Assembly: GCA_964485555.1 (NCBI GenBank)
Contig: CAZAJN010000078.1
Location: 1 to 37,474 of the forward strand
Origin: an uncultured Bdellovibrionales bacterium
GTDB taxonomy: Bacteria > Patescibacteriota > Minisyncoccia > Moranbacterales > GWC2-37-73
DNA length: 37,474 nucleotides
Direction of reading: 5' to 3'
Below, piece after piece: positions 2,847-37,400 of this stretch; position 1 is the first letter of the stretch; every line of letters starts with the position of its first letter. Under the pieces are notes generated by a model that was not told the DNA's origin, did no database searches, and saw nothing but the letters and a program-made list of their open reading frames with translations. The position numbers and the translations under genes were made by a program.

Positions 2847-2883
2847 ATATGTTTGGATGTTTAAATGCTTAAATGTTTAAATG
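2847..2883. repeat. Word-repeat spacer, family W4 (ATGTTTAAATG-type words)
   Basis: Sequence ATATGTTTGGATGTTTAAATGCTTAAATGTTTAAATG. The same words occur at 11418-11450 and 28645-28742. Confidence 0.7.
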
Positions 2884-4455
2884 AAAATTATGCATAAACC
2901 AGTCGTTCTAGTCGTGCTTGATGGATGGGGCATCAGCAACAACAGCAAAGGAAACGTCCTGAAAGAAACACAACTGCCTACCATTGAAAAACTCGATCAC
3001 TACTATCCAATGACCACTTTGCAAGCCTCCGGAATTTCAGTGGGCTTGTTTTGGGGCGAATCGGGCAACAGCGAAGTCGGCCACATGGCTCTTGGCGCCG
3101 GAAAGATTGTCTATCAAAACTTGCCAAGAATCACTCTGTCAATCCAGGATCGGACATTTTTTGCCAATCCAGCCCTGTCAAAAGTTATGGACAGCGTGAA
3201 AGAAAAAGATTCTTCCATTCATCTGATGGGTCTTGTGGGGCAAGGAAGCGTACATTCCTACATGGAACATCTCTATGCGATTTTGGAAATGGCCAAAGAA
3301 AAGGAAATCTCCAAAGTATACGTGCATGTTTTCACTGATGGAAGAGATTCACCTCAAACATCAGGAACAAAATCCATCCAAGATCTGCAAAACCACATGA
3401 AGTCAATCGGAGTTGGAAAAATTGCTTCACTCAGCGGCCGAAACTGGGGAATGGATCGCAACAACAACTGGGATCGTGTTGAAAAAGCCTACAGACTCCT
3501 GACAGAGGGAAAAGGAATCCAAGCCACTGATCCGATCAAATGCCTTCAAGATTCCTACGCCACTGAAATAACCGATGAATACATCGAACCATCAGTGATA
3601 ATGGAAGACGGTCAGCCAATAGCCACAGTCAAAGATGGAGACGGAGTCATTTTTTTCAATTTTCGTGAAGACCGTGCACGCGAACTCACCAAAGCTTTCG
3701 TACTTCCTGGCTTTGAAGGATTTCAGCGGGAACTTTTGAAAATAGATTTTCTGACTCTGGTGGAATATGAAAAAGATCTGCCAGTTGAGATAGCCTTTCC
3801 TCCAATTGTCCTTGCAGGTGGCCTTGGTGAAGTTCTCAGCGCAAACAAACTCACCCAACTTCGAATAGCTGAAACGGAAAAATATGCGCATGTCACATAT
3901 TTCTTCAATGGCGGGAAAGAAGAACCTTGGCCAGGTGAAGATCGTGTGCTCATTCCCTCACCGGCTGTTTCCAAGTTTGATGAAGCTCCAGAGATGAGCG
4001 CAGCCATGATAACTGAAAAAATTCTAGCAGCAGTTGAAGAAGAGAAATATGACTTCATCTTGGTGAATTACGCCAATGCAGACATGGTAGGACACACTGG
4101 GAATGAACAGGCCTGTGTGATAGCTGTTCAAACAGTAGACAAGAATCTTTCCCAATTGATTCCAGCCATTCTTAAAAAGGGCGGTTGTCTTCTCATCACT
4201 GCCGACCATGGAAATGTCGAGGACATCAAAAACTATCACACCGGACAAATTAACACGGAACATTCTTCCAATCCTGTGCCGCTTTGGTTTGTGACTGCTG
4301 ACAATCATCGAGAAAAAAAATCTGAAGAAATAGTCAGGCAGCAAAGTGAAGTTGGAGGTCTGCTCAGTGACCTTGCTCCAACCATTCTTGAAATTCTTGG
4401 CATACAAAAAAACGAGGACATGAACGGGGAAAGCTTATTGCCAATGCTTAAGTAG
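2881..4455 (+). CDS. gpmI: 2,3-bisphosphoglycerate-independent phosphoglycerate mutase
   Basis: 524 aa. Motifs VVLVVLDGWG, GNSEVGHMALGAGKIVYQ and ITADHGN are typical of iPGM. Confidence 0.95.
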   Translation: MKIMHKPVVLVVLDGWGISNNSKGNVLKETQLPTIEKLDHYYPMTTLQASGISVGLFWGESGNSEVGHMALGAGKIVYQNLPRITLSIQDRTFFANPALSKVMDSVKEKDSSIHLMGLVGQGSVHSYMEHLYAILEMAKEKEISKVYVHVFTDGRDSPQTSGTKSIQDLQNHMKSIGVGKIASLSGRNWGMDRNNNWDRVEKAYRLLTEGKGIQATDPIKCLQDSYATEITDEYIEPSVIMEDGQPIATVKDGDGVIFFNFREDRARELTKAFVLPGFEGFQRELLKIDFLTLVEYEKDLPVEIAFPPIVLAGGLGEVLSANKLTQLRIAETEKYAHVTYFFNGGKEEPWPGEDRVLIPSPAVSKFDEAPEMSAAMITEKILAAVEEEKYDFILVNYANADMVGHTGNEQACVIAVQTVDKNLSQLIPAILKKGGCLLITADHGNVEDIKNYHTGQINTEHSSNPVPLWFVTADNHREKKSEEIVRQQSEVGGLLSDLAPTILEILGIQKNEDMNGESLLPMLK

Positions 4456-4494
4456 CTTCTTAGCTTTTCAGCTTTTCAGCTTCCTAGCTTATTA
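4452..4494. repeat. Word-repeat spacer, family W2 (AGCTTWT/AGCTTTT words)
   Basis: Sequence GTAGCTTCTTAGCTTTTCAGCTTTTCAGCTTCCTAGCTTATTAG. Confidence 0.7.
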
Positions 4495-4506
4495 GAAATT
4501 TAAGAA

Positions 4507-4535
4507 ATAAAAAAACACCCTCGGGTGTTTTTTTA
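4507..4535. terminator. Bidirectional intrinsic terminator (gpmI / clpP convergent)
   Basis: Sequence AAAAAAACACC-CTCG-GGTGTTTTTTT: a 5-6 bp GC stem and tetraloop, with an A-run and T-run on either side. Confidence 0.75.
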
Positions 4536-4539
4536 TTGC

Positions 4540-4573
4540 CCTAAGAAGCTAATAAGCTAATGCCTAAAAAGCT
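4540..4573. repeat. Exact 34-nt repeat, copy A (W2 family)
   Basis: CCTAAGAAGCTAATAAGCTAATGCCTAAAAAGCT is identical to 22481-22514. Confidence 0.9.
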
Positions 4574-4583
4574 GTTACAGCTG

Positions 4584-5168
4584 TTACGCTATAAGCTTAT
4601 CCACAATTCCATAAGTCACTGCTTCTTCAGCGCTCATAAAATAATCGCGGTCAGTGTCTTTCTCAACCTTGGAAAGTTTCTGGCCGGTATGTTTAGCCAT
4701 GATTTTATTGAGAACATCTCTAGTTCTCAAGATATGTTGCGCGTGAATGTTGATGTCAGAAGCTTGTCCACTTGCTCCGCCCATGACCTGATGTATCATC
4801 ACTTCAGAATTCGGCAGCACGAATCTTTTTCCCTTTTTTCCGGCCCCAAGCAAAAGTGCAGCTGCTGAAGCTGCCAAACCAATGCAAATGGTCTGCACGT
4901 CAGGCCTGATGTATTGCATGGTGTCATAGATTGCCAAAGCGCTGCTTACTGAACCTCCCGGTGAATTGATATATATCTTAATATCCTCCTTGGGATTCTG
5001 CTGCTCCAAGAATAAAAGTTGAGCAATGACAGCATTAGCCACACCGTCGTCGATCGGAGTACCCAAGAAAATTATCCTATCTTTAAGCAAGCGAGAATAG
5101 ATGTCATACGCCCTTTCCCCATCGTTGGTTTTTTCAATAACGGAAGGAATCAAATAATTGTTTGTCAT
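4584..5168 (-). CDS. clpP: ATP-dependent Clp protease proteolytic subunit
   Basis: 194 aa. Motifs [49 protein letters not shown] and the MIHQ His motif are present. Confidence 0.96.
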
Positions 5169-5268
5169 AAAATTATCTAAAAAATCAAACGATAAAATAT
5201 TTTAGATTTTAGTCATTGAAATTTTACTTGACATTTGATATTGAGATTTTAGGTTTTGCTTGAAAAAA

Positions 5269-6564
5269 TTAAGAAATTTTCTCGAGCATCTCAAGCACTT
5301 TCTCATTCTGCATCATACCTTTGACGTAATTATACAATTTTGCAAGATCAATATTCTTTTCCACGTCTTGGATTTTCTTGTATTGAGCCAATGTTTTGTT
5401 GAGCTCAGCTTCAACTTCCTCATTTGGAATTTCAATTTCCATCTCCTTAGCCACTTCCTCCAAAGCCAAAGCGGCTTTGATTCTTTTAATAGCTTGCGGT
5501 TCCCATTCTTTCTCCAATTCATCAACAGATTTTCCAATCTGAATCAAGTACTGTTCAAAAGTCATGTTCATGCCTTGAAGCTGCATTTCAAACTCTCCGA
5601 TCATTTTGTGCAGTTCCTCATGAATAAGAACGTGTGGAAGTTCCACTTCAGTAGAAGCAATAAGAGCCTCAATGATTTCTGCGCGTCTTTTTTCCTTAAG
5701 GTCATTTTTCTTTTCCTCTTGCATTCCTTCCTTGACGTTCTTTTTCATATCTTCAAGGTCCTTGAATTTTCCAAGTGATCGCGCAAACTCGTCGCTCACT
5801 TCAGGAGTTTTTCGTTCTTCAACAGTGTTCAAAGTGACCGTGAATTGAGCTGGTTTTCCAGCCAAGCCCTTTGCGTGATAATCTTTTGGAAATGTCAGTT
5901 CGAAATCCTTGATGTCTCCAGCTGTCATTCCGATCACCTGCTCTTCAAAACCAGGAATGAAAACTCCTCTCCCGAGAATCATTGGGTGATTTTTGCTGGT
6001 TCCATTTTCAATAGGCACGCCTGATTGTTTGACTTCAAAATCAAGCACAACATTGTCGCCATCCTGTGCAGCTCTGTCAACTTTCACATGTTGCACTCGG
6101 CTCTTTGCAATTTCTTCAATTTCCTTAGTCACATCTTCTTCAGTAACTTCGGCATTTTTTTTGAGATATTCTTTGTTGATTTTACCTACCGCGCTTTTGT
6201 ATGGCTTAACTGTGGCAACTGGAATAACATCAGTCATGATCTTATACACCAATTCGTTTCCTTCAGCCAACTTCAAGACTTCAGCTTTCGGTGCGCCAAT
6301 AGCCTCAATTTTATTTTCAGTCACAACTTTCGGATAAGTTCCCTGCACAGCTTTTTGAGCCGCAGCGTCAAGAAGCGCAGCTGTTCCAACTTTCTTTTCA
6401 ACCATGTCGCGAGGAGCCTTGCCAGCCCGAAATCCTTGGATTTTTATTTCCTTGGAAAATTCTTCAGCAGCTTGATCAATATATTTTTTCCATTCATCCC
6501 AGCCTACAGTCACAGTGATTTCAGCTTGAGAGTGCGGGAGTTTTTTAATTTCAGAATTTATCAT
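5269..6564 (-). CDS. tig: Trigger factor
   Basis: 431 aa with an N-terminal ribosome-binding motif (GFRAGKAPRDMVEKK), a central FKBP-like region and an acidic C-terminal arm. It lies directly upstream of clpP, the classical arrangement. Confidence 0.93.
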   Translation of the reverse strand: MINSEIKKLPHSQAEITVTVGWDEWKKYIDQAAEEFSKEIKIQGFRAGKAPRDMVEKKVGTAALLDAAAQKAVQGTYPKVVTENKIEAIGAPKAEVLKLAEGNELVYKIMTDVIPVATVKPYKSAVGKINKEYLKKNAEVTEEDVTKEIEEIAKSRVQHVKVDRAAQDGDNVVLDFEVKQSGVPIENGTSKNHPMILGRGVFIPGFEEQVIGMTAGDIKDFELTFPKDYHAKGLAGKPAQFTVTLNTVEERKTPEVSDEFARSLGKFKDLEDMKKNVKEGMQEEKKNDLKEKRRAEIIEALIASTEVELPHVLIHEELHKMIGEFEMQLQGMNMTFEQYLIQIGKSVDELEKEWEPQAIKRIKAALALEEVAKEMEIEIPNEEVEAELNKTLAQYKKIQDVEKNIDLAKLYNYVKGMMQNEKVLEMLEKIS

Positions 6565-6572
6565 CTTTTTTA

Positions 6573-6648
6573 GAATTATGAATTATGAATTATGAATCAC
6601 ACTTTGAATCAGGAATTTTTTCATAATTCTTGATTCATGACTCATGGT
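6573..6648. repeat. Word-repeat spacer, family W1 (ATGAATCA / TGATTCAT words) in inverted arrangement
   Basis: Sequence GAATTATGAATTATGAATTATGAATCAC...TCATAATTCTTGATTCATGACTCATGG. The arms are mutually complementary (GAATTATGAA / TTCATAATTC). Confidence 0.75.
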
Positions 6649-6649
6649 T

Positions 6650-7579
6650 CTATCTGCTTAGTTCCTCCATCAATGGCGGCACGATTTGCTTCTTGCGTGA
6701 AACAACTCCTGGCAAACTTATGATGCCACCAGTTGCTTGTGCAGCAAAAACTTTTTCTGCCAAAGATTTTTCCTCATCTCCAATGATATACATCTGGCAA
6801 TTCCCTTTGATGATGTCCACCACCATAAAGAAAATGTAGTCCAGCTTATCAGTGACTTTTCTCTCGCAAAGAATTTGAAAAATTTCATCCTTCTTTTCAT
6901 TCACGGTCTCAGGCAGGGTTGTTTCCCATGTTCCAATTCCCACCTTTTTTGATCCCATTTCAAATTCCTTATAGTCAAGAGTCGTGATTTCCTCTGTTGA
7001 AATACCTTCCAAGCTTGACTTGGCCTTGAACATTTCGGTCACATATTCTTCAACATTCAATTTCGCAATCTCATTCAATTTTTCAGCCAACATTTTGTCC
7101 TCATCTGTGACAGTTGGACTGGTAAAATTCAAAGTGTCCGACAAAATTCCACTGAGAAGCAGCTTTGCAGTCGCCTCACTTGGAACAAGATTCTTTTCAA
7201 AAAACATTTTAGCTGCCAAAGATGACGTGCTTCCTATGACTTCAGTTCTGACGAAAATAGGTTTTTCAGTCGCCACAGCCAGCTTATGATGATCGAAAAT
7301 ATAATCCACGTTGGCATATTCCACGCCGTCTGCAATCTGCGAAATTTCATTGTGATCAACCAAGGCAACACTGTCAGCCTGCATTCCTGCTTCGAAAAGA
7401 TCAGGAACTTCAACTCCCCATTTCTCCAAAATGAATTTTGTTTCATTGTTAAGCATACCAGCGCGGTAGGCTTTCGCATTTTTGCCAAGACCTTTTTCAA
7501 AATATTCTTGCAAAGCAATGGCTGAAATGACTGAATCAGTATCTGGATTCTTATGACCAATGATGATAATTTTATTCAT
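6650..7579 (-). CDS. ppaC: Manganese-dependent inorganic pyrophosphatase (family II, DHH)
   Basis: Motifs IIIIGHKNPDTDSVISAIAL, FDHHK and SDTLNFTSPT. The start is set at MNKIII (ATG 7579). The ORF-track extension MNHESWQS... to 7642 is encoded by the W1 repeat. Confidence 0.9.
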   Translation of the reverse strand: MNKIIIIGHKNPDTDSVISAIALQEYFEKGLGKNAKAYRAGMLNNETKFILEKWGVEVPDLFEAGMQADSVALVDHNEISQIADGVEYANVDYIFDHHKLAVATEKPIFVRTEVIGSTSSLAAKMFFEKNLVPSEATAKLLLSGILSDTLNFTSPTVTDEDKMLAEKLNEIAKLNVEEYVTEMFKAKSSLEGISTEEITTLDYKEFEMGSKKVGIGTWETTLPETVNEKKDEIFQILCERKVTDKLDYIFFMVVDIIKGNCQMYIIGDEEKSLAEKVFAAQATGGIISLPGVVSRKKQIVPPLMEELSR

Positions 7580-7608
7580 AACTCTTAGTTGAATTCTGAA
7601 TTTAGAAA

Positions 7609-7654
7609 AATGAATTATGGATTGCCATGATTCATGATTCATGATTCATAATTC
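7609..7654. repeat. Word-repeat spacer, family W1
   Basis: Sequence AATGAATTATGGATTGCCATGATTCATGATTCATGATTCATAATTC. Confidence 0.75.
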
Positions 7655-7664
7655 TTTTATCTTT

Positions 7665-8873: not shown

Positions 8874-8888
8874 AATTACTATATTCAC

Positions 8889-8916
8889 TAGCTTCGTTAG
8901 CTTTTAGCTTGTTAGC
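8889..8916. repeat. Word-repeat spacer, family W2
   Basis: Sequence TAGCTTCGTTAGCTTTTAGCTTGTTAGC. Confidence 0.65.
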
Positions 8917-8962
8917 AAAAATACTAAAAAAGTAATGATTTTTCTTATTAAATTGTTACTAT

Positions 8963-9205
8963 CCTACAAACTTACAAAATTTTACAAAAATACGAAAATA
9001 CAAAATAAAAGGGTATTAATACCCCAGGGCAAGCCCTGGACCCTTTGGGCTCACGAGGCAAGCCTCGAGGTATTAAACCTTTTGATATCTGCGCTCGCTC
9101 GGAAATTGAAAAGAGTACTTTTCATTTCGCTCGACTTCGCTTGATAATAAAACGTGTGAATTTTTTGTACATTTGTATTTTTGTAAAATTTTGTACTTTT
9201 GTAGC
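8963..9205. repeat. ~44-bp imperfect terminal inverted repeats (W3, TACAAA/TTTGTA words) enclosing a 154-bp GC-richer core
   Basis: Left arm CCTACAAACTTACAAAATTTTACAAAAATACGAAAATACAAAAT (8963-9006) pairs with right arm TTTTTTGTACATTTGTATTTTTGTAAAATTTTGTACTTTTGTAGC (9161-9205). The core contains hairpins CCAGGG-CAAG-CCCTGG and CGAGG-CAAG-CCTCG. The same arms occur at 36226-36331 with only a 28-nt core. Confidence 0.7.
9087..9140 (-). repeat. CGAGCGA-hairpin-CGAGCGAG element, copy 2
   Basis: The reverse complement reads GCGAAGTCGAGCGAAA-[TGAAAAG AGTA? CTTTTCA]-ATTTCCGAGCGAGCGCAGAT and matches 287-333. Confidence 0.6.
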
Positions 9206-9213
9206 CTACTTAA

Positions 9214-9239
9214 AGAAAAAAGTCCGCTTTCCAGCGAAC
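9214..9239 (-). terminator. Intrinsic terminator after the pilin gene train
   Basis: Minus strand GTTCGCT-GGAA-AGCGGAC (7-bp stem with one G-U) followed by TTTTTTC, 145 nt downstream of the stop at 9384. Confidence 0.55.
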
Positions 9240-9383
9240 CCATCCCTACCTCTATCTATACGTAGTTTAGCAGAAAAACTTACAAATGTCAATCGATCAC
9301 ACTTAGAACCACACAGAACCACAAAATATATGCAATATTTTTATACTTTGTATTTTCTTAATCTTTTTGTAGTTTTGTAGAAA

Positions 9384-10802
9384 CTAGAAGAAGTACCCTT
9401 TGCTTCCCGACAATGCCGCAGAGACAGCTTGCAGAACAATGAAGCCTGAAAGGCCGACAATTATTCCAATAAGAGCGTATTTGGCGTTGTTTTTGGCTGT
9501 TTTCATTTGGTCATCACTGCCGGCGGCAGTTGTGTATTGAACGCCTGAAAGCACAAATGCGCCTATTGCCAAAGTCGTGAAAAGACCCATCAGCCATGAA
9601 AAGATGTTGGACAAAATCAGATAGATCGGCGCATCTGAAAGACCGGTGTTGGTTGGAAAACAAACTCCTCCAATATCTTTGAAATTCGTGGCACATTTTG
9701 GTGTTGTTGCTCCGCTAAGACCTGCAACATTTCCAAGGCCTCTATTGTTAGATGTTCCATTATTAATGACAGTGAGCGGAGCTCCAGAACTCCTGTTTGT
9801 TTCACATATTTGTCCCATGATGCCATTAGCACACAAAGTGAAACCGCTTCCACTGTTCACACTTGAATTTACTGCTTGAAGATCAGCCGGTGGCAATTGC
9901 GCAATTGTTCCACTTGGCAATGTTGCTTGCCCCGTCGTAGTGTTGATGCTTGTTCCAGCTGGATATGTTTTGCCAGCTGAATCAACCAGTTGGGTATTAG
10001 TTTTTACAGCTTGAGTTGTTGTGTTTGTCGTTGACCCCCCTGAAGAAGGTGTTTCGCTTGTTGTAGAAGTACTTGGTGTTGGCCGAGCTTCGCAAGTAGA
10101 AACAAAAATACCAGTACATACTAAGTCATCATTTGGAAATAAGCGGGCGCAATCCTTGTCAGTCATGCATTCAGTATCCGCCCAGAAACCATCCACCATG
10201 CAAATATCAGCAATACATTTATAGCCTTTTCCGAATTTTTGAGTACAACTCTCATCAGTTATGCATTCCTTAACATTTTGATCCGAGGTGCAAACCCCCT
10301 CCGTGCTGTCATATGAATATCCACCATCACAAACACATTCTCCTCCTGATAAATGTTCATGCGACTGACAAGTTATACTGGGAGCGCTATCAGAGGTGCA
10401 AACACCTTCTGTGCTGTCATATGAAAAGCCTTTAATGCAAGCGCAATCGTTAATCGAGTTTTCAAAGTAAGTGTTTGGCATAGGACAATCAGTATTCACC
10501 GATTGAACAGAGTTGCACGTATTATTATACCAATATCCGCCATTCTTCTGACAACATATCTCGGTACTGTAATCTCCCGAGCAATTATTATTATAATTAT
10601 CATAAACAGGCACATTTGGATCACCTGGATAGCCAGCGCAATCCTCAGGCGTCCCCCCATAGTCGTTTATGCATTCACTATACGTCAAATCATCCGCCAT
10701 ACTGATACCAACAAAAGTAATGCCAAGAAAGAAAAACATGGCCACAACCAAATAAATTTTGTTTTTTATTTTCATTTTTTTATTGCATGAACCATTACTC
10801 AT
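9384..10802 (-). CDS. Secreted Cys-rich adhesin-like protein fused to a C-terminal VirB2/TrbC-like two-TM pilin module (P1)
   Basis: 472 aa. Signal/anchor KIYLVVAMFFFLGITFVGISMA; about 190 aa with over 30 Cys and repeated modules (C.KGFSYDSTEGVCTSD / CDGGYSYDSTEGVCTSD; EC[IM]TD..C). A Thr/Ser linker (TPSTSTTSETPSSGGSTTNTTT) follows. The C-terminal module is LMGLFTTLAIGAFVLSGVQYTTAAGSDDQMKTAKNNAKYALIGIIVGLSGFIVLQAV. Confidence 0.8.
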   Translation of the reverse strand: MSNGSCNKKMKIKNKIYLVVAMFFFLGITFVGISMADDLTYSECINDYGGTPEDCAGYPGDPNVPVYDNYNNNCSGDYSTEICCQKNGGYWYNNTCNSVQSVNTDCPMPNTYFENSINDCACIKGFSYDSTEGVCTSDSAPSITCQSHEHLSGGECVCDGGYSYDSTEGVCTSDQNVKECITDESCTQKFGKGYKCIADICMVDGFWADTECMTDKDCARLFPNDDLVCTGIFVSTCEARPTPSTSTTSETPSSGGSTTNTTTQAVKTNTQLVDSAGKTYPAGTSINTTTGQATLPSGTIAQLPPADLQAVNSSVNSGSGFTLCANGIMGQICETNRSSGAPLTVINNGTSNNRGLGNVAGLSGATTPKCATNFKDIGGVCFPTNTGLSDAPIYLILSNIFSWLMGLFTTLAIGAFVLSGVQYTTAAGSDDQMKTAKNNAKYALIGIIVGLSGFIVLQAVSAALSGSKGYFF

Positions 10803-10822
10803 GATTCATAATTCATGATTCG
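10800..10822. repeat. Word-repeat spacer, family W1
   Basis: Sequence CATGATTCATAATTCATGATTCG, lying between P2 and P1. Confidence 0.7.
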
Positions 10823-10827
10823 ATATA

Positions 10828-11298
10828 TTAAAATGTTTTTGATCCACCACCAAGAAGAGCGGCCACTGCCTGCATGATGATGAACCCAGAAAGTCCAACA
10901 ATGATTCCGATGATTGAAGCAGTCATCCCCGCTTTTCCTTTTTTTGCATTGTCTTCATCTGCGCCAGCCAAAAGATAGAAAATTCCGGAAAGAACGAAAC
11001 CGACAATTCCTGCGATTGCAAAAACCGCCAACAGCCAAAACAAAAGATTTGAGGCAATTCCCAAAAGGCTTCCGCTTGGAAGACCGTATGGATTTGTCAG
11101 GGCCCAACCTCCGCCACTTCCTCCACCCCACACATTGGCAGCTCCGGAACCTCTCGATCCTACTCCAACATTGATGTTTCCAGTTGAACTGTTGTATCCA
11201 ACCCCCCATTCCTGAGCTAAGGCTAAAAATGGAGAAAGTGAAAAACCGATTATTGCCAAAGTCAGCGCGCAATAAAATTGATTGAGTTTCTTTTTCAT
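10828..11298 (-). CDS. VirB2/TrbC-like pilin paralog with Gly-rich ectodomain (P2)
   Basis: The ATG at 11298 gives signal peptide MKKKLNQFYCALTLAIIGFSLSPFLALA|QE; the ORF-track start at 11322 is TTG. A Gly/Ser/Asn-rich segment follows, then GLPSGSLLGIASNLLFWLLAVFAIAGIVGFVLSGIFYLLAGADEDNAKKGKAGMTASIIGIIVGLSGFIIMQAV...GGGSKTF. Confidence 0.8.
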   Translation of the reverse strand: MKKKLNQFYCALTLAIIGFSLSPFLALAQEWGVGYNSSTGNINVGVGSRGSGAANVWGGGSGGGWALTNPYGLPSGSLLGIASNLLFWLLAVFAIAGIVGFVLSGIFYLLAGADEDNAKKGKAGMTASIIGIIVGLSGFIIMQAVAALLGGGSKTF

Positions 11299-11379
11299 AT
11301 TTTTTATATTATAAAATGCCAAGATATTATTATATTAAAATTATAGCATAAAATTTTAATCATGCCTATATTTCTTGCA

Positions 11380-11403
11380 ACAAAAAACAGCCATCGCTGG
11401 CTG
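11380..11403 (-). terminator. Intrinsic terminator immediately after P3
   Basis: Minus strand CAGCCA-GCGA-TGGCTG followed by TTTTTTG, 56 nt downstream of the P3 stop. Confidence 0.55.
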
Positions 11404-11417
11404 CATTCTGAATATCC

Positions 11418-11450
11418 ATGTTTGCATGTTTAAATGCTTGCATGTTTATA
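11418..11450. repeat. Word-repeat spacer, family W4
   Basis: Sequence CATGTTTGCATGTTTAAATGCTTGCATGTTTATA. Confidence 0.7.
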
Positions 11451-11458
11451 TTTTTTCA

Positions 11459-11812
11459 CTAGAAGCTCTTTGAATTTCCTCCAAGCAATCCTTTGACAGC
11501 TTGAATGATGATGACTCCCAAAAGGGCAACAATAATACCGATAATTGAGTTGATCATCGTTCTCTTTCCGCGATCGATCTGACCTTCGTCTCCTGCAGCT
11601 GTCAAATAGATGATACCTGCAATAACAAATCCGATAACACCAAGAATTCCAACAACGATCAACAGCCAATTCATTCCGCTAGTGATGATTCCCAAAAGAC
11701 TTCCTGCTGGCAAACCTGTTCCCGTAGGCTCTTGGAATTGAGCCATGGCCAAAGCCGGCATCAATGCAAGAGAAGAAATCATTCCGTAGGCAATTTTTTT
11801 CATTTTTTTCAT
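11459..11812 (-). CDS. Short VirB2/TrbC-like pilin (P3), candidate major subunit
   Basis: 117 aa. Signal peptide MKKMKKIAYGMISSLALMPALAMA|QF. The mature protein of about 93 aa has two TM helices around the loop YLTAAGDEGQIDRGKR and a C-terminal GGNSKSF. A strong SD (AGGAGGTG) lies 6 nt upstream of the ATG. Confidence 0.85.
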   Translation of the reverse strand: MKKMKKIAYGMISSLALMPALAMAQFQEPTGTGLPAGSLLGIITSGMNWLLIVVGILGVIGFVIAGIIYLTAAGDEGQIDRGKRTMINSIIGIIVALLGVIIIQAVKGLLGGNSKSF

Positions 11813-11878
11813 GTTCGCACCTCCTTTTCTAGTTTTTATTTTTATTTCTTTTATTTAAACTTTCCAAAATTTATTTTC

Positions 11879-12160
11879 TCATTGAGCTTGAAAGAATTGT
11901 CCGATCAATCTCACCAGCACCATTCCGCCCAATGCCATCACTATGCCCAGAAAAGCATATTGGACATTTTTCTTCACCTTCCGCATGCGCTTTTCATCTC
12001 CAACAGAAGTCACATACATCATCGCCGAAACGACTAATGAAATTATAGCAATAATTCCAACAACTGACAACAAAAAATACAAAATATTCATCCCAATATT
12101 CGAAACCCTCGGCGCCTCGCTTATGACACCAGCCTGCGCCACGTCTATTAAACGAATCAT
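11879..12160 (-). CDS. VirB2/TrbC-like pilin module only, no obvious cleavable signal (P4)
   Basis: 93 aa: ILYFLLSVVGIIAIISLVVSAMMYVTSVGDEKRMRKVKKNVQYAFLGIVMALGGMVLV. It has the same TM-loop-TM pattern as P1-P3. Confidence 0.7.
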   Translation of the reverse strand: MIRLIDVAQAGVISEAPRVSNIGMNILYFLLSVVGIIAIISLVVSAMMYVTSVGDEKRMRKVKKNVQYAFLGIVMALGGMVLVRLIGQFFQAQ

Positions 12161-12163
12161 GAT

Positions 12164-12553: not shown

Positions 12554-12559
12554 AATTCA

Positions 12560-14245: not shown

Positions 14246-14261
14246 AAATCTAAACTTGAAA

Positions 14262-26032: not shown

Positions 26033-26077
26033 AACAATGCATTTGGAATTTGTAATTTATCATTTGAAATTTCCAGC

Positions 26078-27907: not shown

Positions 27908-27937
27908 ATGTGTATTTTTAATTTATACTGCTCGTGA

Positions 27938-28627: not shown

Positions 28628-28644
28628 AAAATTGCTCGTTAAGA

Positions 28645-28742
28645 CATATAAACATTCAAGCATTCAAACATGCGAATTTCTGTTTGGGTGTTTGGATGTT
28701 TAAGTGTGTAGACTGATTGAATGTTTAGATGTTTTGATGTCT
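28645..28742. repeat. Word-repeat spacer, family W4, inverted arms
   Basis: Sequence CATATAAACATTCAAGCATTCAAACATGCG...GTTTGGATGTTTAAGTG...TTGAATGTTTAGATGTTTTGATG. Confidence 0.7.
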
Positions 28743-28757
28743 AATTGATTGCTTACA

Positions 28758-29210
28758 CTACGCCTTTTTGATCGGTTGATTTTTCATAATGTCATCAAGA
28801 TCATGGCTATAATTGTTTCCTTCACTATCCAAAAGTTGCGCGAGATTTCTTAGTGAATCCTCAGTAAGGTGTTTGTCCGGAGAAAATTTTTGTTCAACTT
28901 TTGCTTTTTGCGGAACATTGATCACATTTTGCGGTGTTCTTTTCCAGATGTAAACTTTGGGCTTGAAAAAGTACATGATTCCAAAAATTACAAAGCTTCC
29001 CATTGGTTGACCATACGGCTTGAAAAAAGCCAGAGATCCGAAAATGATAGCTAGCGGAAAACCTATGACCAAAAAACCCGCGAACGGAACAACATTCCAA
29101 AGAATGAGCAACATCACTCCGAGCGCGATAAGCCAACCCAACTGCTTGATAGTCAGCGGTCCGGCCACTTTATCTTCTACGTCTATATATTGTGGAACGT
29201 TTATTAACAT
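28758..29210 (-). CDS. PrgI/VirB3-like small T4SS membrane protein
   Basis: 150 aa. The N-terminus VPQYIDVEDKVAGPLTIKQLGWLIALGVMLLILWNVVPF is followed by a second TM helix. It sits just upstream of the VirB4 genes, as prgI does relative to prgJ. Confidence 0.7.
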   Translation of the reverse strand: MLINVPQYIDVEDKVAGPLTIKQLGWLIALGVMLLILWNVVPFAGFLVIGFPLAIIFGSLAFFKPYGQPMGSFVIFGIMYFFKPKVYIWKRTPQNVINVPQKAKVEQKFSPDKHLTEDSLRNLAQLLDSEGNNYSHDLDDIMKNQPIKKA

Positions 29211-29237
29211 TTTTATTTTTATTTTCTTTAACTTACA

Positions 29238-30143
29238 TTAGCCAACTATGAAAAACTTTGCGACCTGAGTCACCAAAACCATCGATGCCATAGCTATTAC
29301 AACTCCCAGCAAGGAATATTTGAAAATATTTTTTCCAGTATCAATCCTGTCCTCATCCCCTGCAGATGTGAGATACATGGATGCGCCAATGACCATCATG
29401 ACAAGTGAAAGAATTCCCAAGATTCCAAGCAAGAAATTCAAAACCCGGGTGGCAATCTGAGAAAGACTAAGCGCTGCAGCCAAACGCGTGTCAGTTGTTC
29501 CCCAACCCAATATGGTTGATATTTCTTTCAGAAAAGATGGGGCTGCCAATCCGATGGCCAATCCGACAAGCGCAGCTGTGATCATGTTCTTGGCTGTTTC
29601 GATCTGTTTTCCACCTCCTGAGATGACATACATCACCGCACCGATGACGATCATCAAAAGCGAAAGAGTGACGATAATTCCTTGCAATGCTCCCATGATT
29701 TGACTCAAGAATTGATCAACTGTTTGAAATTTGAGTGGATTGGTAAATGCTGTCCCTCCACCAGAAGCCGGCTGAACTGTTCCCGGATTGGCAGTGGCTG
29801 GACTTGGTATTGGACCAGAATTGGAATCCACACAAGTGCCAGCTGCATTACATACCCCATAATTTCCCGCTGCAGAGCAAGGTTGCATGATTGATGAACC
29901 ATCCGCATTGCAAGTAACTGAGGAAATGGCACAGCATTGAACACTATTACCAGTGCCAGGACAAAGATTTGCCACGCACCCCGATTCACCGGAAACTTTG
30001 TTTTTATCAACGCAAGCTGAACCAGGATTTTTGGCTGAGCAAGTATCAGCTAGAACTTTCTGAACACCAAAAGTTAAAAAAAATCCAGATATCAAGAGGA
30101 ACAAAAACATACTCAACCGTAATTTCATTATTGTCTTAGTCAT
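29238..30143 (-). CDS. Secreted Cys-rich protein carrying two tandem VirB2/TrbC-like pilin modules (P5)
   Basis: 301 aa. Signal peptide MKLRLSMFLFLLISGFFLTFGVQKVLA|D, then a Cys-rich segment of about 75 aa. Module 1 is IIVTLSLLMIVIGAVMYVISGGGKQIETAKNMITAALVGLAIGLAAPSF. Module 2 is LLGILGILSLVMMVIGASMYLTSAGDEDRIDTGKNIFKYSLLGVVIAMASMVLV. Confidence 0.8.
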   Translation of the reverse strand: MTKTIMKLRLSMFLFLLISGFFLTFGVQKVLADTCSAKNPGSACVDKNKVSGESGCVANLCPGTGNSVQCCAISSVTCNADGSSIMQPCSAAGNYGVCNAAGTCVDSNSGPIPSPATANPGTVQPASGGGTAFTNPLKFQTVDQFLSQIMGALQGIIVTLSLLMIVIGAVMYVISGGGKQIETAKNMITAALVGLAIGLAAPSFLKEISTILGWGTTDTRLAAALSLSQIATRVLNFLLGILGILSLVMMVIGASMYLTSAGDEDRIDTGKNIFKYSLLGVVIAMASMVLVTQVAKFFIVG

Positions 30144-30164
30144 ATTTTTTATTATATTTAATTT

Positions 30165-30812
30165 CTATCGATTAGGATTCGCACTGCAATCAAACTGTCC
30201 CCAACTCGTGATGTTCATGCCAAATGTAGGATTTCCTTGAGCGTCTGTTTTCGATCCCAATGATTGTATGACAGTGTTGACAATCAGCCATCCGGCAAAA
30301 ATAATAACAAAACCTATAGCTGCATTTTTCATAATATCCTTGGCTCTTCCTGTTGTCTTTGGGTCTCCAGCTGAAACTACATACACAACTCCAGCAATAG
30401 TAAAAGCAAGCAAGCCAACACCTATGGAAATTCTCATGATGTATTGGATCACATTATTGAGCCCCGCTATAAAGTCACAAAGCGTGCACATAGATTGACC
30501 AGGTCTTCCACATTTCACCAACTGACTCTCTTCGGTTGTAGTTCCCGGAATCTTATAGTCTGTTGCCTGTCCGGCACTTCCAGGGCCAGAAGCGGGAGTG
30601 GTGACAACGCCTGATGTGACACAATTCCCTTTGCCATCGCATTTTCCATATTCAGCACTTTTGCCATCACCAACCGAGCATGCTGTCTTGTCAGGTTTAT
30701 TCAGACAAACTGCATCTGCAGCCATGGCTGGCAAATTATTGACAAAAAGTCCACCCAACAGGATGACGCTATATGCGATACTTTTTATAGTTTTCATTTT
30801 CATGATCATCAA
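30165..30812 (-). CDS. Secreted Cys-rich protein with a VirB2/TrbC-like pilin module and C-terminal extension (P6)
   Basis: 215 aa. Signal peptide ...SVILLGGLFVNNLPAMA|AD and a Cys-rich ectodomain. The module is ISIGVGLLAFTIAGVVYVVSAGDPKTTGRAKDIMKNAAIGFVIIFAGWLIV, followed by a 35-aa tail containing Cys. Confidence 0.8.
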   Translation of the reverse strand: MMIMKMKTIKSIAYSVILLGGLFVNNLPAMAADAVCLNKPDKTACSVGDGKSAEYGKCDGKGNCVTSGVVTTPASGPGSAGQATDYKIPGTTTEESQLVKCGRPGQSMCTLCDFIAGLNNVIQYIMRISIGVGLLAFTIAGVVYVVSAGDPKTTGRAKDIMKNAAIGFVIIFAGWLIVNTVIQSLGSKTDAQGNPTFGMNITSWGQFDCSANPNR

Positions 30813-32953: not shown

Positions 32954-32995
32954 GTATTTGGTATTTGGTATTTGGTATTTGGTATTTGGTATTTG
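32954..32995. repeat. Perfect heptanucleotide tandem repeat, (GTATTTG)x6
   Basis: Six exact copies from 32954 to 32995 plus a partial seventh. It lies 10 nt upstream of the candidate -35, in the divergent region between the MTase operon and tRNA-Ser. Confidence 0.95.
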
Positions 32996-33071
32996 GTTTC
33001 TAGTTACTGATTACGAGTTACGAGTCGCATGTTTGTCTGATTGTATGTTTTCATGATTAAATGATTATCAT

Positions 33072-33879: not shown

Positions 33880-35682
33880 ATGAATGAACCAGAGAAAAAA
33901 AACCTGCCTGCCGGCAGGCAGGTTGTCAAAGTTCCAACCAGCATAACCGTGAAGAAATTTAGCGAGCTTTTAGGCTTGCCTGTTTCACATGTGATCACCG
34001 AGCTGCTGAAAAACAACATTCTTGCAACCATCAATGAAGAAATTGACTTTGATACTGCGACAATCATTGCCCAGGACCTTGGATTTGAAACTGAAGCTGA
34101 CCTGGTCATTTCTGACAGCGAAACAATAACTGTTGAAAAACTGATTGAAATTTGCAAGAAAGAAAAAGAATCTGGAAAAAATCTTCATCCTCGCCCACCG
34201 GTTGTGACCATTCTTGGTCATGTTGATCACGGCAAGACGACTCTTTTGGACACGATTCGCAAAGCCAGCGTGGCTGCCAAGGAAGCTGGAGGAATCACTC
34301 AGCACATCAGCGCCTATCAAGTAAAAAAGAAAGGCAAATTGATAACTTTCATCGACACTCCTGGACATGAAGCTTTCTCAGGAATGAGAGAACGAGGAGT
34401 CAGCATAGCCGACATCGCAGTTTTGGTTGTGGCAGCGGACGACGGAGTCAGACCACAAACTAAAGAGGTTATTGAGTATTTGAAAGATAAGAAAATTCCA
34501 ACCGTTGTCGCCATCAACAAAATCGACAAACCTGATGCCAACCCTCAGCGCGTGAAACAGGAATTGGCCGACAATGGAATCCTGATCGAACAATGGGGTG
34601 GAGACATTATCAGCGTGGAGGTCAGTGCCAAGCAGAACATGGGAATAGATTCCCTTTTGGAAAGTATTCTATTAGTAGCTGAAGTGGAAGATTTCAAGGC
34701 TGATGACAAACGAGATGGATTTGGAATCGTTCTCGAATCCAATCTTGATCCGCAAAAGGGACCCATCGCAACCATTCTTGTCAAAACCGGAACACTGAAA
34801 GTAGGACAGGATGTGACAGCAGGAACAGCTTATGGTCGCATCAAGAAGATGGAAGACTTCACTGGAAAAAATCTCTTGACTGCCGGACCATCGATGCCTA
34901 TCAAGATCATGGGACTCAATAGCACTGCAAATTCAAACGATGTTCTTCAGGTGGTGAGCGGAAAATCAATAGCCCGCTTGAAATCAAAAGAATTTTCTGG
35001 CGGATTGATTGAACGCAAAGAAAAAGTCACTTCACAAAAATTGATGCGCATCATGGAGGAAGACAAGATCCAGAAATTGAACCTCATTCTGAAAGCGGAT
35101 GTCCAAGGATCATTGGAAGCCATTGAACAAATCATCTCGACCATCAAGACCGACGAAGTCATCGTAGACTACGTAGAGACTGGAATCGGAAACATCACAG
35201 AATCAGACATCAAAATCGGTGCTCCATCCCAAGCCATGATTTTGGGATTCAATGTTGAAACGACGACCGTTGCCAAGCGCTTGGCTGAGGCTAGCGGAGT
35301 CAAGATCAAAACTTTCAAGATCATCTACGAATTGGTTGAAGAGGTCAAAAAAACCATCATTGACATGCTTCCGCCTGAAATAGTTCGCACAGATCATGGA
35401 ATGGTGAACGTTCTGGCAATTTTCAAAACTGGCAAGCGAGACATGATCGTGGGAGGACGCGTGACTGAAGGAAAAATTATCAAAGGAGCTTCCATTGAAA
35501 TCCGAAGAGAAGGAGAGATTGTCGGCAAAGGAAAGTTGGAAGCGCTTCAGCAAGACAAGAAAGTCACTCCTGAAGTTGGAAAAGGAAATGAATGCGGAAT
35601 TGTGTTTGAAGGAGACACCAAAATCAAAGAAGGCGACATGTTGATCGCATATACTGAAGAAGAAAGGAAGAGAACATTATAG
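33880..35682 (+). CDS. infB: Translation initiation factor IF-2
   Basis: 600 aa. G-domain motifs GHVDHGKTTLLD, DTPGHEAF, NKID and SAK, followed by the C-terminal beta-barrel domains. Confidence 0.96.
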   Translation: MNEPEKKNLPAGRQVVKVPTSITVKKFSELLGLPVSHVITELLKNNILATINEEIDFDTATIIAQDLGFETEADLVISDSETITVEKLIEICKKEKESGKNLHPRPPVVTILGHVDHGKTTLLDTIRKASVAAKEAGGITQHISAYQVKKKGKLITFIDTPGHEAFSGMRERGVSIADIAVLVVAADDGVRPQTKEVIEYLKDKKIPTVVAINKIDKPDANPQRVKQELADNGILIEQWGGDIISVEVSAKQNMGIDSLLESILLVAEVEDFKADDKRDGFGIVLESNLDPQKGPIATILVKTGTLKVGQDVTAGTAYGRIKKMEDFTGKNLLTAGPSMPIKIMGLNSTANSNDVLQVVSGKSIARLKSKEFSGGLIERKEKVTSQKLMRIMEEDKIQKLNLILKADVQGSLEAIEQIISTIKTDEVIVDYVETGIGNITESDIKIGAPSQAMILGFNVETTTVAKRLAEASGVKIKTFKIIYELVEEVKKTIIDMLPPEIVRTDHGMVNVLAIFKTGKRDMIVGGRVTEGKIIKGASIEIRREGEIVGKGKLEALQQDKKVTPEVGKGNECGIVFEGDTKIKEGDMLIAYTEEERKRTL

Positions 35683-35823
35683 AAAAATTCCAATATACAA
35701 GAAACGAAAACCAAACAAGTTCCAATAACCAATTCTAAAATTTCAAAAAGTTTGGATATTGATTATTTTTATTTGTAATTTGTTTGTATCTTGTTACTTG
35801 ATTATTGGTTATTATTTAAATCC

Positions 35824-36153
35824 ATGTCTGAACGTATCACAAAACTAAACAAACTTATCAAGCAACACCTGGGTGAGATTTTTCAACGCGAATTGTCACT
35901 CAAGCCAGGTCTGTTTTTGACGATCGCCAAAGTTGACACCACTCCAGATATCAGATATACTCGAGTGTCTATTAGCGTCTTTCCTTTCAAGGAATCAGAC
36001 TATGCAATCAAGACATTGAACAAAGAGATATATTCGATCCAAGGAGCCCTGAACAAAAAGCTTGCCATGAGGCCGCTTCCCCGCATTGAATTCATCCTGG
36101 ACTCGACAGAGGAAGAAGCAGACAAGATCGAAAAGATTCTCAAGGAGGTCTAG
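35824..36153 (+). CDS. rbfA: Ribosome-binding factor A
   Basis: 109 aa from the ATG at 35824 (MSERITKLNKLIKQHLGEIFQRE...), directly downstream of infB. The ORF-track start at 35791 is a TTG within repeat words. Confidence 0.88.
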   Translation: MSERITKLNKLIKQHLGEIFQRELSLKPGLFLTIAKVDTTPDIRYTRVSISVFPFKESDYAIKTLNKEIYSIQGALNKKLAMRPLPRIEFILDSTEEEADKIEKILKEV

Positions 36154-36187
36154 CCCCACTCAAAACAAAAATACAGTCTCATAAAAT

Positions 36188-36216
36188 TCTTAAACTTTTT
36201 TAGTTTAAGATTTTTT
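36188..36216 (+). terminator. Intrinsic terminator after rbfA
   Basis: Perfect 9-bp stem TCTTAAACT / AGTTTAAGA with a 5-nt loop, followed by TTTTTT. Confidence 0.6.
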
Positions 36217-36225
36217 ATTCAAGTT

Positions 36226-36331
36226 CCTACAAACTTACAAATTTTTACAAAAATACAAAAGTGTTTTTTTCCAAACTGTGTGAGTCAATTTTGTATTTTT
36301 GTAATTTTGTATTTTTTCGTATTTTCGTAGG
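36226..36331. repeat. W3 inverted-repeat pair, 'empty' version of the 8963-9205 element
   Basis: Left arm CCTACAAACTTACAAATTTTTACAAAAATACAAAA (nearly identical to 8963-8997) pairs with right arm TTTTGTATTTTTGTAATTTTGTATTTTTTCGTATTTTCGTAGG. The core is 28 nt. Confidence 0.7.
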
Positions 36332-36371
36332 GTGGCATCCAACTTAAACACACTATCCTAAAATAGAATCC

Positions 36372-37331
36372 ATGAAAAATTTCGACCAAGAATTCAATAC
36401 GCTTTCCTATGTCATAGCAAAATCCAAAAATATTCTGCTTTTTGCCCATTCCGGACCAGATGGTGACACCGCTGGCAGTGTGCTAGCTTTCAAAGACTAT
36501 CTCACCTCAATCGGAAAAAAAGCGGTGATCGGTTGCGTAGATCCAATTCCGACTTTTCTGGAAAATCTGACTGAAGAAGAATTTGTTCTTCCTCAAAATT
36601 TAGATCTTTCCATTTTTGATGCAGCCATCGGATGTGACAGTGTTGAAAGAGGTTTTCAAAAAATAATCACCGAGCTTCCGGAAAAAACCGTGACCGCCAT
36701 CATTGATCATCATCCTGACATCACCATCAAAGCCGACATCGTCATCATAGATTCCAAATGCTCATCAACCTGTGAAATCATCTATGAATATTTCGCCTCT
36801 CAACAAATAACCATTTCGAAAAATATTGCGACCTATCTGATGATTGGAATCTTGTCCGATACTGGCAATTTTCAGCATGCCAACACATCCAGTCGCGTCA
36901 TGGAAATCTCCTCGGATCTCATGAAAAGAGGTGCGTCGGTTTCAAAAATAATTGAAGCCACTTTTGCCAATAAAAAACTTTCAACATTAAAACTCTGGGG
37001 CAAAGCTTTTGAAAAAGCAAAAATCAATCCAATAAATGGATTGATAACAACGGTACTCACCCAAGCCGACATTGAAGAATGCAAAGCCTCAACTGAAGAT
37101 ATAGGTCAAGTCGCTTCAATTCTAAACACGGTTCCTGGAACAAAATTCTCCTTAGTGCTTTCCGAAAGAGACAATGGCATCATCAAAGGAAGTCTAAGAA
37201 GCGAGGAATACAAAGGCGTTGATGTTAGCGAAATCGCCCACCAATTCGGAGGTGGCGGACACAGACTAGCAAGCGGATTTGAAGTTCAAGGAAAGATAAT
37301 TGAAACCGAAACTGGCTGGGAAATAGTTTAG
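36372..37331 (+). CDS. nrnA: DHH-family phosphoesterase, NrnA-like bifunctional oligoribonuclease/pAp phosphatase
   Basis: 319 aa. Motifs HSGPDGDTAGS, IIDHH and the DHHA1 motif GGGGH. It sits in the conserved infB-rbfA-nrnA context. Confidence 0.88.
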   Translation: MKNFDQEFNTLSYVIAKSKNILLFAHSGPDGDTAGSVLAFKDYLTSIGKKAVIGCVDPIPTFLENLTEEEFVLPQNLDLSIFDAAIGCDSVERGFQKIITELPEKTVTAIIDHHPDITIKADIVIIDSKCSSTCEIIYEYFASQQITISKNIATYLMIGILSDTGNFQHANTSSRVMEISSDLMKRGASVSKIIEATFANKKLSTLKLWGKAFEKAKINPINGLITTVLTQADIEECKASTEDIGQVASILNTVPGTKFSLVLSERDNGIIKGSLRSEEYKGVDVSEIAHQFGGGGHRLASGFEVQGKIIETETGWEIV

Positions 37332-37333
37332 CT

Positions 37334-37400
37334 AGAATCATGAATCAAGAGTCATGAATCATGCGCTGTTATTTTTTTGCATGATTCGTAATTCATTACC
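37334..37400. repeat. Word-repeat spacer, family W1, inverted arms
   Basis: Sequence AGAATCATGAATCAAGAGTCATGAATCATGC-GCTGTTATTTTTTT-GCATGATTCGTAATTCATTA. Confidence 0.75.

Follow-up and report, generated by a model that had tools for sequence, protein, structure and literature searches.

Inverted arrays of 7- and 8-nt words form hairpins in the intergenic spacers of a Candidatus Moranbacteria contig

Contig CAZAJN010000078.1, analysed here as a single stretch of 37.5 kb (the window), has a G+C content of ~40%, is 88% coding and carries most of its genes on the minus strand. Its intergenic spacers contain tandem arrays of 7-8-nt words, in part arranged as inverted pairs that fold into long hairpins, and these word-built repeats are the subject of this study. 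A scan with InfB placed the host in Candidatus Moranbacteria (Candidate Phyla Radiation, CPR; Patescibacteria), with GW2011_GWC2_37_8 as the closest genome (96% InfB identity), and yielded a graded series of 33 more loci from relatives; the related loci that were compared with the window bear L-numbers (L002, L003, L076 and so on). The window DNA is present in three groundwater metagenome runs of 2012, all of them DNA runs, and a metagenome scan for strain-level relatives returned only relatives of ≤72% identity. Attempts to lengthen the contig by exact protein matches yielded short Logan contigs only. The genes comprise RNase Y, as claimed by a first-pass annotation of the letters, together with gpmI, clpP, tig, a DHH phosphoesterase gene, nusA, a tyrosine recombinase gene, pcrA/uvrD, ksgA, a comM-like gene, infB, rbfA, nrnA and two tRNAs. 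CPR genomes commonly hold type IV secretion-like clusters, and the one found here encodes a VirB4/TraG-type ATPase, TrbL/VirB6 and several type IV secretion system (T4SS) pilins. The type IV secretion-like genes form two clusters, at 10828-16496 and 25376-30812, and cysteine-rich secreted/membrane proteins lie with them.

The intergenic enrichment of short words described by the first-pass annotation was upheld against both composition-matched shuffles and coding DNA. In the window, 936 of the 4714 intergenic bases (19.9%) lie inside exact-6-mer tandem repeats of period 6-10, whereas dinucleotide shuffles of the same spacers (n = 200) gave a mean of 210 ± 57 bases (4.5%), an excess of z ~13, and the corresponding share of coding DNA is 2.9%. 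The excess sits at periods of 7, 8 and 14, with 7 and 8 dominating, and 7 is the commonest array period in the window and the 33 related loci taken together. The words are AT-rich. The double word of family W1, GAATYAWGAATYAWGAAT, occurs 29 times with at most two mismatches against 0.13 expected, at ~10 sites in 37 kb. All the words listed for the families were recovered at their coordinates, and Tandem Repeats Finder (TRF) called arrays of period 7-8 at nearly all of them, including the (GTATTTG)x6.3 array at 32954-32997. The statement that almost every spacer is built in this way was too broad: arrays are common, but only 19 of the 29 spacers of at least 20 nt carry them. The families W1 to W6 are represented as follows (z, folding z-score).

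6573-6648: W1 hairpin between tig and the DHH phosphoesterase gene, built of GAATYAW words and the complementary words; z -3.5.
7591-7654: W1 hairpin between nusA and the DHH gene; z -3.2; its ATGs give a spurious N-terminal open reading frame (ORF) extension.
10797-10822: W1 single arm directly upstream of the gene at 9384-10802.
12151-12185: W1 arm at the 3' (stop-codon) end of the minus-strand gene 23S_rRNA_IVP, pairing with 12537-12575.
12537-12575: W1 arm at the 5' (start-codon) end of the same gene, the partner of 12151-12185.
18268-18333: W1 hairpin just upstream of the tyrosine recombinase gene; -29.5 kcal/mol, z -6.1.
19278-19384: W1 arms around the classical bidirectional terminator 19301-19330, between convergent genes; -40.3 kcal/mol, z -6.4.
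21859-21883: W1 array GAATCATGAATCATGAATCAGG in frame inside ksgA (21645-22442, minus strand), encoding MNHES.
37334-37400: W1 hairpin downstream of nrnA; a diverged W1 hairpin lies at the orthologous site in L002.
4452-4597: W2 arms (AGCTTNN / NNAAGCT) around the terminator 4506-4537, between convergent gpmI and clpP; z -6.3.
8889-8916: W2 single array, called by TRF.
21559-21668: W2 hairpin between pcrA/uvrD and ksgA; z -2.2.
22465-22514: W2 arm, of which 22481-22514 (34 nt) equals 4540-4573 exactly.
8962-9206: W3 arms (TACAAAA / TTTTGTA), 42 nt long and 88% complementary, on either side of a multi-copy, GC-rich insert of 155 nt (9007-9160).
9335-9383: W3-like array.
35683-35823: hairpin filling the infB|rbfA spacer, with a W3-like right arm at 35771-35815; z -3.1.
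36225-36331: W3 palindromic element (CCTAC...GTAGG); z -3.3; left arm 94% identical to 8962-8997.
2791-2883: W4 hairpin (AAACATA / ATGTTTAA) that runs up to the start codon of gpmI; z -1.9.
11417-11451: W4 array.
28630-28750: W4 hairpin; -43.6 kcal/mol and z -6.9 on the plus strand.
33029-33070: W4-like array just upstream of tRNA-Ser.
16567-16749: W5 arms (AATTTTC / GAAAATT), 104 nt apart, next to the terminator 16745-16778.
25228-25351: W5 element, one copy of a conserved ~130-nt palindromic element; covariance model score 94.6 bits.
26041-26075: W5-like array.
32954-32997: W6, a perfect array of (GTATTTG)x6.3 that lacks an inverted partner; (AGTTACG)x3 comes next.

The MNHES peptide of the ksgA array is also made by spurious W1-derived ORF extensions elsewhere. 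ATGs in the W1 arrays at 7580-7642 and 18326-18346 push the DHH and recombinase ORFs upstream of their likely starts (MNKIIIIGHK and MNSNTK), and automated gene callers would probably mis-set both starts there.

Short-read assemblies break at word repeats, which could raise the suspicion of an assembly or chimera artefact of low-complexity sequence. The Logan assembly of run SRR446575 indeed breaks exactly at a repeated 34-mer. Its contig SRR446575_1934 equals window positions 4544-7481 at 100% identity, and the identical stretch spans two hairpin spacers. Since this independent assembly shows no difference at all, the word pattern is not an assembly artefact; the same architecture also recurs in dozens of genomes from unrelated studies. 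The artefact explanation is refuted for practical purposes, and we give it a negligible chance.

Regular 7-8-nt spacing would also suit a protein that binds DNA or RNA with a ~7-nt footprint and has its sites in arrays; candidates are a nucleoid protein, a cold-shock/S1-type protein and a methyltransferase with GANTC in W1 as its target. The W1 word (TGAWTCA) is near-palindromic, has GANTC within it and is shared, as a conserved word, by the window and L076; CspB has been reported on heptamer repeats with one protein per unit (PMC4679880), and heptamer repeats of Nostoc alter expression (bioRxiv 10.1101/2022.06.06.494920). Nevertheless, the 136 non-coding arrays fall into 81 different canonical units, several unrelated words coexist within one genome, no common motif was found, and the inverted layout hides single-strand sites in a stem. 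We therefore regard binding-site arrays as very improbable.

Most of the named spacers fold into one long AT-rich hairpin, with z between -3 and -7, in agreement with the first reading of the sequence. Values from -3.2 to -6.9 were obtained for 6565-6649, 7580-7664, 18262-18340, 19275-19385, 4450-4590, 36220-36335, 28630-28750 (plus strand) and 35683-35823, the last of which was also given z -3.1. Classical GC-stem terminators nested in or beside the arrays were confirmed at 19301-19330, 4506-4537 and 16745-16778. The view that arrays are usually inverted held in part: inverted partners exceed controls, but a strict reverse-complement partner within 250 nt exists for just 32% of the non-coding arrays of the window and the 33 related loci, against 12-14% for reversed or complemented control words. 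A fold z below -3 was reached by 42% of the tandem-rich spacers.

Over ~130 nt, of which the loop is a part, the W5 hairpin (25228-25351) can be aligned with non-orthologous copies in other genomes, giving the consensus AATAATTTTCAATTCACAATTTTCAATTTTCAAAC ... TCATTGGAAATTGTTTAGAAATTAGAAATTGAAAATTAGAAATTTTT. The full-length element was found in at least four non-orthologous contexts in six genomes:

infB|rbfA spacer: L004 and L016.
Upstream of a comM-like gene: the window and L008.
Immediately upstream of a clpP-like gene: L081.
Beside a tRNA: L027.

With a covariance model, more full-length W5 copies were found, among them a second one in L008 at 13176-13333 (92.7 bits) and a second one in L016, amounting to at least two copies per 14-22 kb in these two loci. 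At the comM-like site, the orientation of W5 in the window and L008 is opposite to that in L003, L007 and L015. Metagenome word depth over 25020-25450 was 28, 116 and 161 in the three runs, against ~7-8, 6 and 0-3 in flanking bins; for the element itself the values are 28-160 against 3-9, and overall the excess over the flanks is 10-50-fold, so that W5 is multi-copy in the community. Depth was raised as well over the W2 region near 4400-4673. Sharing between distant sites extends to other families: 34 nt are 100% identical at 4540-4573 and 22481-22514, 18 kb apart, and the left arms of W3 at 8962 and 36225 agree to 94% over 36 nt. Among 375 Moranbacteria spacers, 209 match another spacer significantly, with 28 of the pairs lying within one locus. 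Word sharing between neighbouring spacers was not above that between distant ones, though on visual inspection a single family surrounds many genes. Some of the word hairpins, at least, are thus copies of discrete conserved elements.

The W5 stem also bears signs of maintained pairing. In an alignment of 19 matches, which was fitted to the model and so favours structure somewhat, 17 of 28 stem pairs had changed on both sides, against 9.0 ± 1.7 after shuffling (0 of 500 shuffles reached 17), and pairing collapsed when the partners were slid by 1-3 columns. TCATTGG was considered as a common loop motif and discarded: it is not enriched (0.19/kb in non-coding against 0.29/kb in coding DNA) and is just part of the W5 consensus.

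The arrays are a trait of the lineage and not of this one window. In the closest Moranbacteria loci, arrays of period 7-8 cover 4-13% of non-ORF bases, and some other Patescibacteria are similar, whereas most Bacillota and most Saccharibacteria-labelled loci from the same scan have 0-5%. The intergenic-versus-coding contrast is repeated in the relatives. Because the gene order infB-rbfA-nrnA is conserved among them, orthologous spacers can be compared directly. The infB|rbfA spacer is a single hairpin across nearly the whole gap in 11 of 14 relatives, often with other words, and several subclades have a word of their own with its complement: AAAGTTN in L003, L033 and L026; AATTTTC/GAAATT in L004 and L016; AAATCYCA in L006; CAAATGA in L010 and L013; and TTAGTTA in L031. 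The spacer after nrnA follows the same pattern, with the hairpin kept and the words replaced, and the rbfA|nrnA spacer almost always holds a classical terminator and GC-richer inserts. A hairpin at orthologous junctions with differing words indicates that the architecture lasts at particular junctions while the sequence is replaced.

Closer comparisons showed two modes of spacer evolution. Between L003 and L007, whose coding DNA is ~94% identical (96% at codon positions 1 and 2, 75% at 4-fold sites), 8 of 13 spacers are less than 60% identical, with the hairpin present in one and absent from the other or swapped for another family. The replaced spacers have clean edges at the stop and start codons, as in the infB|rbfA spacer of 117 nt versus 31 nt. 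The other 5 of the 13 are 91-100% identical, above synonymous sites. Between the window and L076, 4-fold sites are near saturation (47% identical), and the W1 spacer that separates tig from the DHH gene shows ~80% identity, loop included; its right arm in L076 has an extra stretch that includes one more ATAATTC word. The clpP/gpmI W2 arms are kept in L076 with a different terminator core, and the tig|clpP spacers of the two are unalignable, both being word hairpins. A process of slippage and copying between spacers, one of the origins initially proposed, fits the whole-word differences between orthologous arms, the exact 34-mers 18 kb apart and the compensatory changes. The results show copying between sites, gain and loss of whole words, maintained pairing and constraint on at least some copies, in dispersed element families of fast turnover and partial conservation.

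From these observations we derived a reading to which we give about an even chance, namely that the hairpins belong to families of small (~60-135 bp) AT-rich palindromic DNA elements that spread by DNA copying and act as an intercistronic stem-loop when transcribed. In their layout, one arm repeats a word of 7 or 8 nt in tandem and the other is an array of its reverse complement, and they fill short intergenic gaps in Moranbacteria and some other Patescibacteria. DNA-level copying, either transposition-like or by gene conversion, would spread or homogenise the elements; arm length may change through replication slippage, and the arms could be kept matched by intrastrand template switching or by selection for pairing. 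Transcribed within operons, an element would fold as one long stem-loop, possibly an intercistronic insulator in the form of a site for double-stranded RNA processing or 3'-end protection, a weak terminator or a translation-coupling structure.

The position of the hairpins agrees with the RNA part of this proposal. In 34 co-directional tandem-rich hairpin spacers, the stem takes up a median of 85% of the gap, starting a median of 4 nt past the stop codon and ending a median of 8 nt ahead of the predicted start; no Shine-Dalgarno motif was visible in the examples inspected. Arrays occur in 57 of 154 co-directional spacers without a classical terminator and in 10 of 52 with one (p = 0.025), and convergent spacers of several relatives hold a word hairpin alone where other relatives have a GC-stem terminator. 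Scans for promoter and terminator consensus sequences remained near background. We infer that the hairpins might serve in processing, termination or translational coupling. Together with the hairpins kept at orthologous spacers while words are replaced, and with the compensatory changes in W5, the stop-to-start geometry and the terminator statistics would also favour RNA structures selected in place, which might be processed by RNase III or RNase Y, protect 3' ends, terminate weakly or couple translation and for which words would be the fastest mutational route to a long stem. The W4 hairpin at 28630-28750 is a further point in favour of such structures, folding at -43.6 kcal/mol on the plus strand against -17.7 kcal/mol on the strand of the flanking genes and containing many G-U pairs; this G-U-rich strand is, however, antisense to the flanking genes, and the hairpin could mark a plus-strand (antisense) transcript. 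Hairpins were also found in divergent spacers, and the conserved full-length copies at unrelated sites are left unexplained by evolution in place. Considering the strand data described below as well, we find it unlikely that selection on RNA in place accounts for the repeats.

Returning to the proposed palindromic elements, several observations weigh against this reading as a whole or against one of its parts. Those that concern its RNA part are the following. Of the 66 tandem-rich co-directional spacers, 33 have their better fold on the sense strand and 32 on the antisense strand, whereas ordinary spacers favour sense-strand folding by 84 to 56, as terminators should. Single mismatches in otherwise Watson-Crick stems are G-U-compatible 9 times on the sense strand and 11 times on the antisense strand, and pairwise consensus folds of three orthologous pairs, computed for both strands, were mixed. 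Where the arms enclose a terminator (4452-4597 and 19278-19384), only one arm would be in the terminated transcript. The strand symmetry fits a DNA-level origin, yet is compatible with an RNA role, and the test is a weak one because young, near-perfect stems give it little power.

Other observations concern the elements themselves. Some arrays have no clear inverted partner (for example 32954-32997, 22465-22514 and 26041-26075), and that at 25231-25334 pairs only weakly. Copies of W1 have their arms in common and not their loops, so W1 may not be one discrete element. A 23-nt string of W5 words also occurs in an unrelated GC-rich viral contig, which means that short word identity alone does not prove homology. 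Family copy numbers were sampled on ~0.6 Mb of loci rather than on whole genomes. The same orthologous spacers hold different families in different genomes, which suggests a hotspot or selection and not insertion at random. Finally, no transposase, target-site duplication or excision product was identified, with no scan of the loci for Y1 transposases having been made. The viral contig, L087 (IMG/VR contig UViG_3300014839_001402), was the single hit of W5 words in the viral collection; it is GC-rich, comes from an unrelated organism and bears heptamer arrays of the same words (TTCACAA, AATTTTC and AATTCCC) at 9701-9747 and several other period-7 arrays.

Arrays without a partner, the strand symmetry and the whole-word differences between orthologues are also what a local mutational by-product would produce, in which slippage arrays arise in unconstrained AT-rich spacers and are mirrored by fold-back or template-switch copying at existing hairpins (terminators, inserts), tolerated by the reduced repair set of CPR bacteria and involving neither mobility nor function. 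The arms do wrap pre-existing hairpins and a GC-rich insert, one in-frame array is tolerated inside ksgA, and the long simple repeats of prokaryotes most often have a unit of 7 nt, ascribed to polymerase slippage (Mrazek 2007, as cited in PMC4679880). Against such an origin stand the full-length W5 elements kept, loop included, at non-orthologous sites across genomes, the spacers conserved well beyond synonymous sites and the exact 34-mers 18 kb apart. No unit-number polymorphism was seen in contigs from the three samples, which is weak evidence in the same direction as contigs drop rare variants. Overall, we hold a purely local origin to be improbable.

Going further, the repeats might be hairpin-forming microsatellites, a distinct kind of self-propagating or structure-selected DNA whose arms grow by slippage and are matched by template switching, which would settle between stop and start codon at almost all operon junctions of a CPR lineage poor in Shine-Dalgarno motifs and replace terminators, ribosome-binding sites or RNase sites without a dedicated transposase. 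We consider this extension doubtful.

Several other repeats and genes were noted. A GC-rich two-module element of ~150 nt is located just past stop codons (AAAAGGGTATTAATACCCC...GGTATTAAACC, then GCGCTCGCTCGG-hairpin-CGCTCGAC...TTGATAATAAAA), at 9007-9160 in the window, where it is nested in the W3 arms (with a partial copy at 282-352), and at 65-206 and 4405-4523 in L002, 13346-13484 in L016 and 5430-5501 in L005. Its word depth in the community is 10-100 times that of its flanks, it has no Rfam match, and it could represent a 3'-UTR (untranslated region) RNA or a small mobile element. GC-rich palindromes of the type CCTGCCTGCCGGCAGGCAGG occur at 33901-33924, at the 5' end of infB (read as LPAGRQV near the InfB N-terminus), and at 37399-37450, followed by a G-rich run at the contig end; they look like a second, unrelated kind of repeat. 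Other MITE-like (miniature inverted-repeat transposable element) inserts are present or absent between L003 and L007 (L003 9811-9985 and 12215-12368; L007 4755-4909, 5330-5490 and 14000-14375), one family having the ends CACCCYGTTAAAT...ATTTAACAGGGTG and another TTGTCATTCCGGA...GGATGACAA.

The gene of a 23S rRNA-intervening-sequence protein (PF05635, E = 1.7e-38) lies at 12164-12553 on the minus strand, between T4SS genes, and is bracketed by W1 arms of 28 nt that are 86% complementary and 362 nt apart. Homologues in L042 (14871-15218) and L050 (3401-3661) are likewise bracketed by inverted repeats. Pairing flanks are shared with rRNA intervening sequences, whereas here the gene lies outside rRNA.

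CPR bacteria have tiny genomes with very short spacers, and almost nothing is known of how their transcription and translation are punctuated. If about two thirds of the spacers hold one kind of repeat-built hairpin, it is a main feature of their non-coding DNA, whether as a signal or as selfish DNA. The spacers are bimodal, being either conserved above synonymous sites or wholly replaced, and orthologous sites with one architecture and different words offer a compact system for the co-evolution of simple repeats and palindromes. In practice, the repeats break short-read assemblies and create false ATG-extended ORFs.

Finally, we compared the repeats with known classes. Several candidates were set aside. 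The repeats are not CRISPR, as had been stated at the outset, their units being 7-8 nt and contiguous where CRISPR has repeats of 23-50 nt with unique spacers of similar length. Identity with intrinsic terminators was rejected, the word stems being long, AT-rich and mostly without a T run, with classical terminators separate or nested. Integron attC sites and gene cassettes do not fit syntenic housekeeping genes (tig, clpP, nusA, infB, rbfA) flanked across genomes, nor do phase-variable contingency loci fit flanking housekeeping genes with no copy-number variants seen. Iterons were likewise rejected as a class. Against Rfam at the gathering score, only the two tRNAs match in the window, with nothing real in 8880-9390 at E ≤ 1.

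The early statement that no described class fits did not survive. The tandem 7-nt arrays match the class of long simple sequence repeats, or STRR (repetitive DNA made of short tandem units), of cyanobacteria and others (PMC4679880). Heptamer or long simple repeats are described in heterocystous cyanobacteria, often near start codons, and as TAACTGA in Beggiatoaceae, with a presumed origin in slippage (PMC4679880; bioRxiv 10.1101/2022.06.06.494920). The likeness lies in tandem head-to-tail units of 7 nt (here also 8 nt) well beyond chance, near confinement to non-coding DNA, frequent abutment on start codons and several word families per genome. The host phylum differs, the words are AT-rich, and the canonical STRR words of heterocystous cyanobacteria (CCCCAGT, TTGGTCA and CAACAGT) are not carried. 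Moreover, the arrays are short (2.5-8 units), about one third by the strict test are inverted pairs forming one spacer-filling hairpin, and whole hairpins with their loops recur as dispersed elements. STRR units reportedly lengthen a helix of cyanobacterial RNase P RNA, to judge by the title of a 1997 article by Vioque cited in PMC2858038, which would be a precedent for heptamer arrays as both sides of a stem.

The assertion that the repeats are not REP/BIME- or MITE-like also has to be revised, at least for W5, which is a conserved dispersed palindrome at non-orthologous sites and in this resembles REPINs and MITEs (PMC3116915). REPINs have two inverted conserved arms with a less conserved spacer, are extragenic, form several families per genome, show compensatory changes and persist at a site for long (PMC3116915). 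W1 and W5 share the inverted doublets that form a hairpin with a variable spacer, W1 fitting best, and agree with REPINs in the remaining features just named. They differ in that the arms are tandem 7-8-nt words of variable unit number and AT-rich rather than GC-rich. REPINs go with a single-copy RAYT (Y1 transposase) that the repeats flank; no RAYT was found here, with no search aimed at it. The sole recombinase in the window is the tyrosine recombinase, of phage-integrase/Xer type. With MITEs (Correia/NEMIS, ERIC, RUP), the elements have in common a length of ~100-250 bp, presence or absence between close relatives, inverted ends with a family-specific interior (W5 conserved over arms and loop, the W3 ends CCTAC...GTAGG in two copies) and nesting (the 155-nt GC-rich insert within W3 arms); in contrast, they vary in length by whole words and have no known parent transposon. 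No target-site duplication was visible at filled versus empty sites, where AT-rich flanks and wholly replaced spacers blur the edges.

Two further systems for comparison are the intercistronic RNase III hairpins of phage T7 early mRNA and translational coupling mediated by secondary structure. The resemblance is one of possible working only, as a long stem-loop between consecutive cistrons of one transcript; the stems here are AT-rich, built of repeats and equally stable on both strands, and neither cleavage nor coupling is indicated. In the literature searched, we found no description of such repeats in CPR bacteria or Moranbacteria. They are best read as combining two known kinds, the heptamer simple repeats of the STRR class and hairpin elements of the REPIN/MITE type. 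What is new is the combination of word-built arms, the hairpin layout, the stop-to-start placement and a lineage-wide occupancy of spacers in which the words are replaced.

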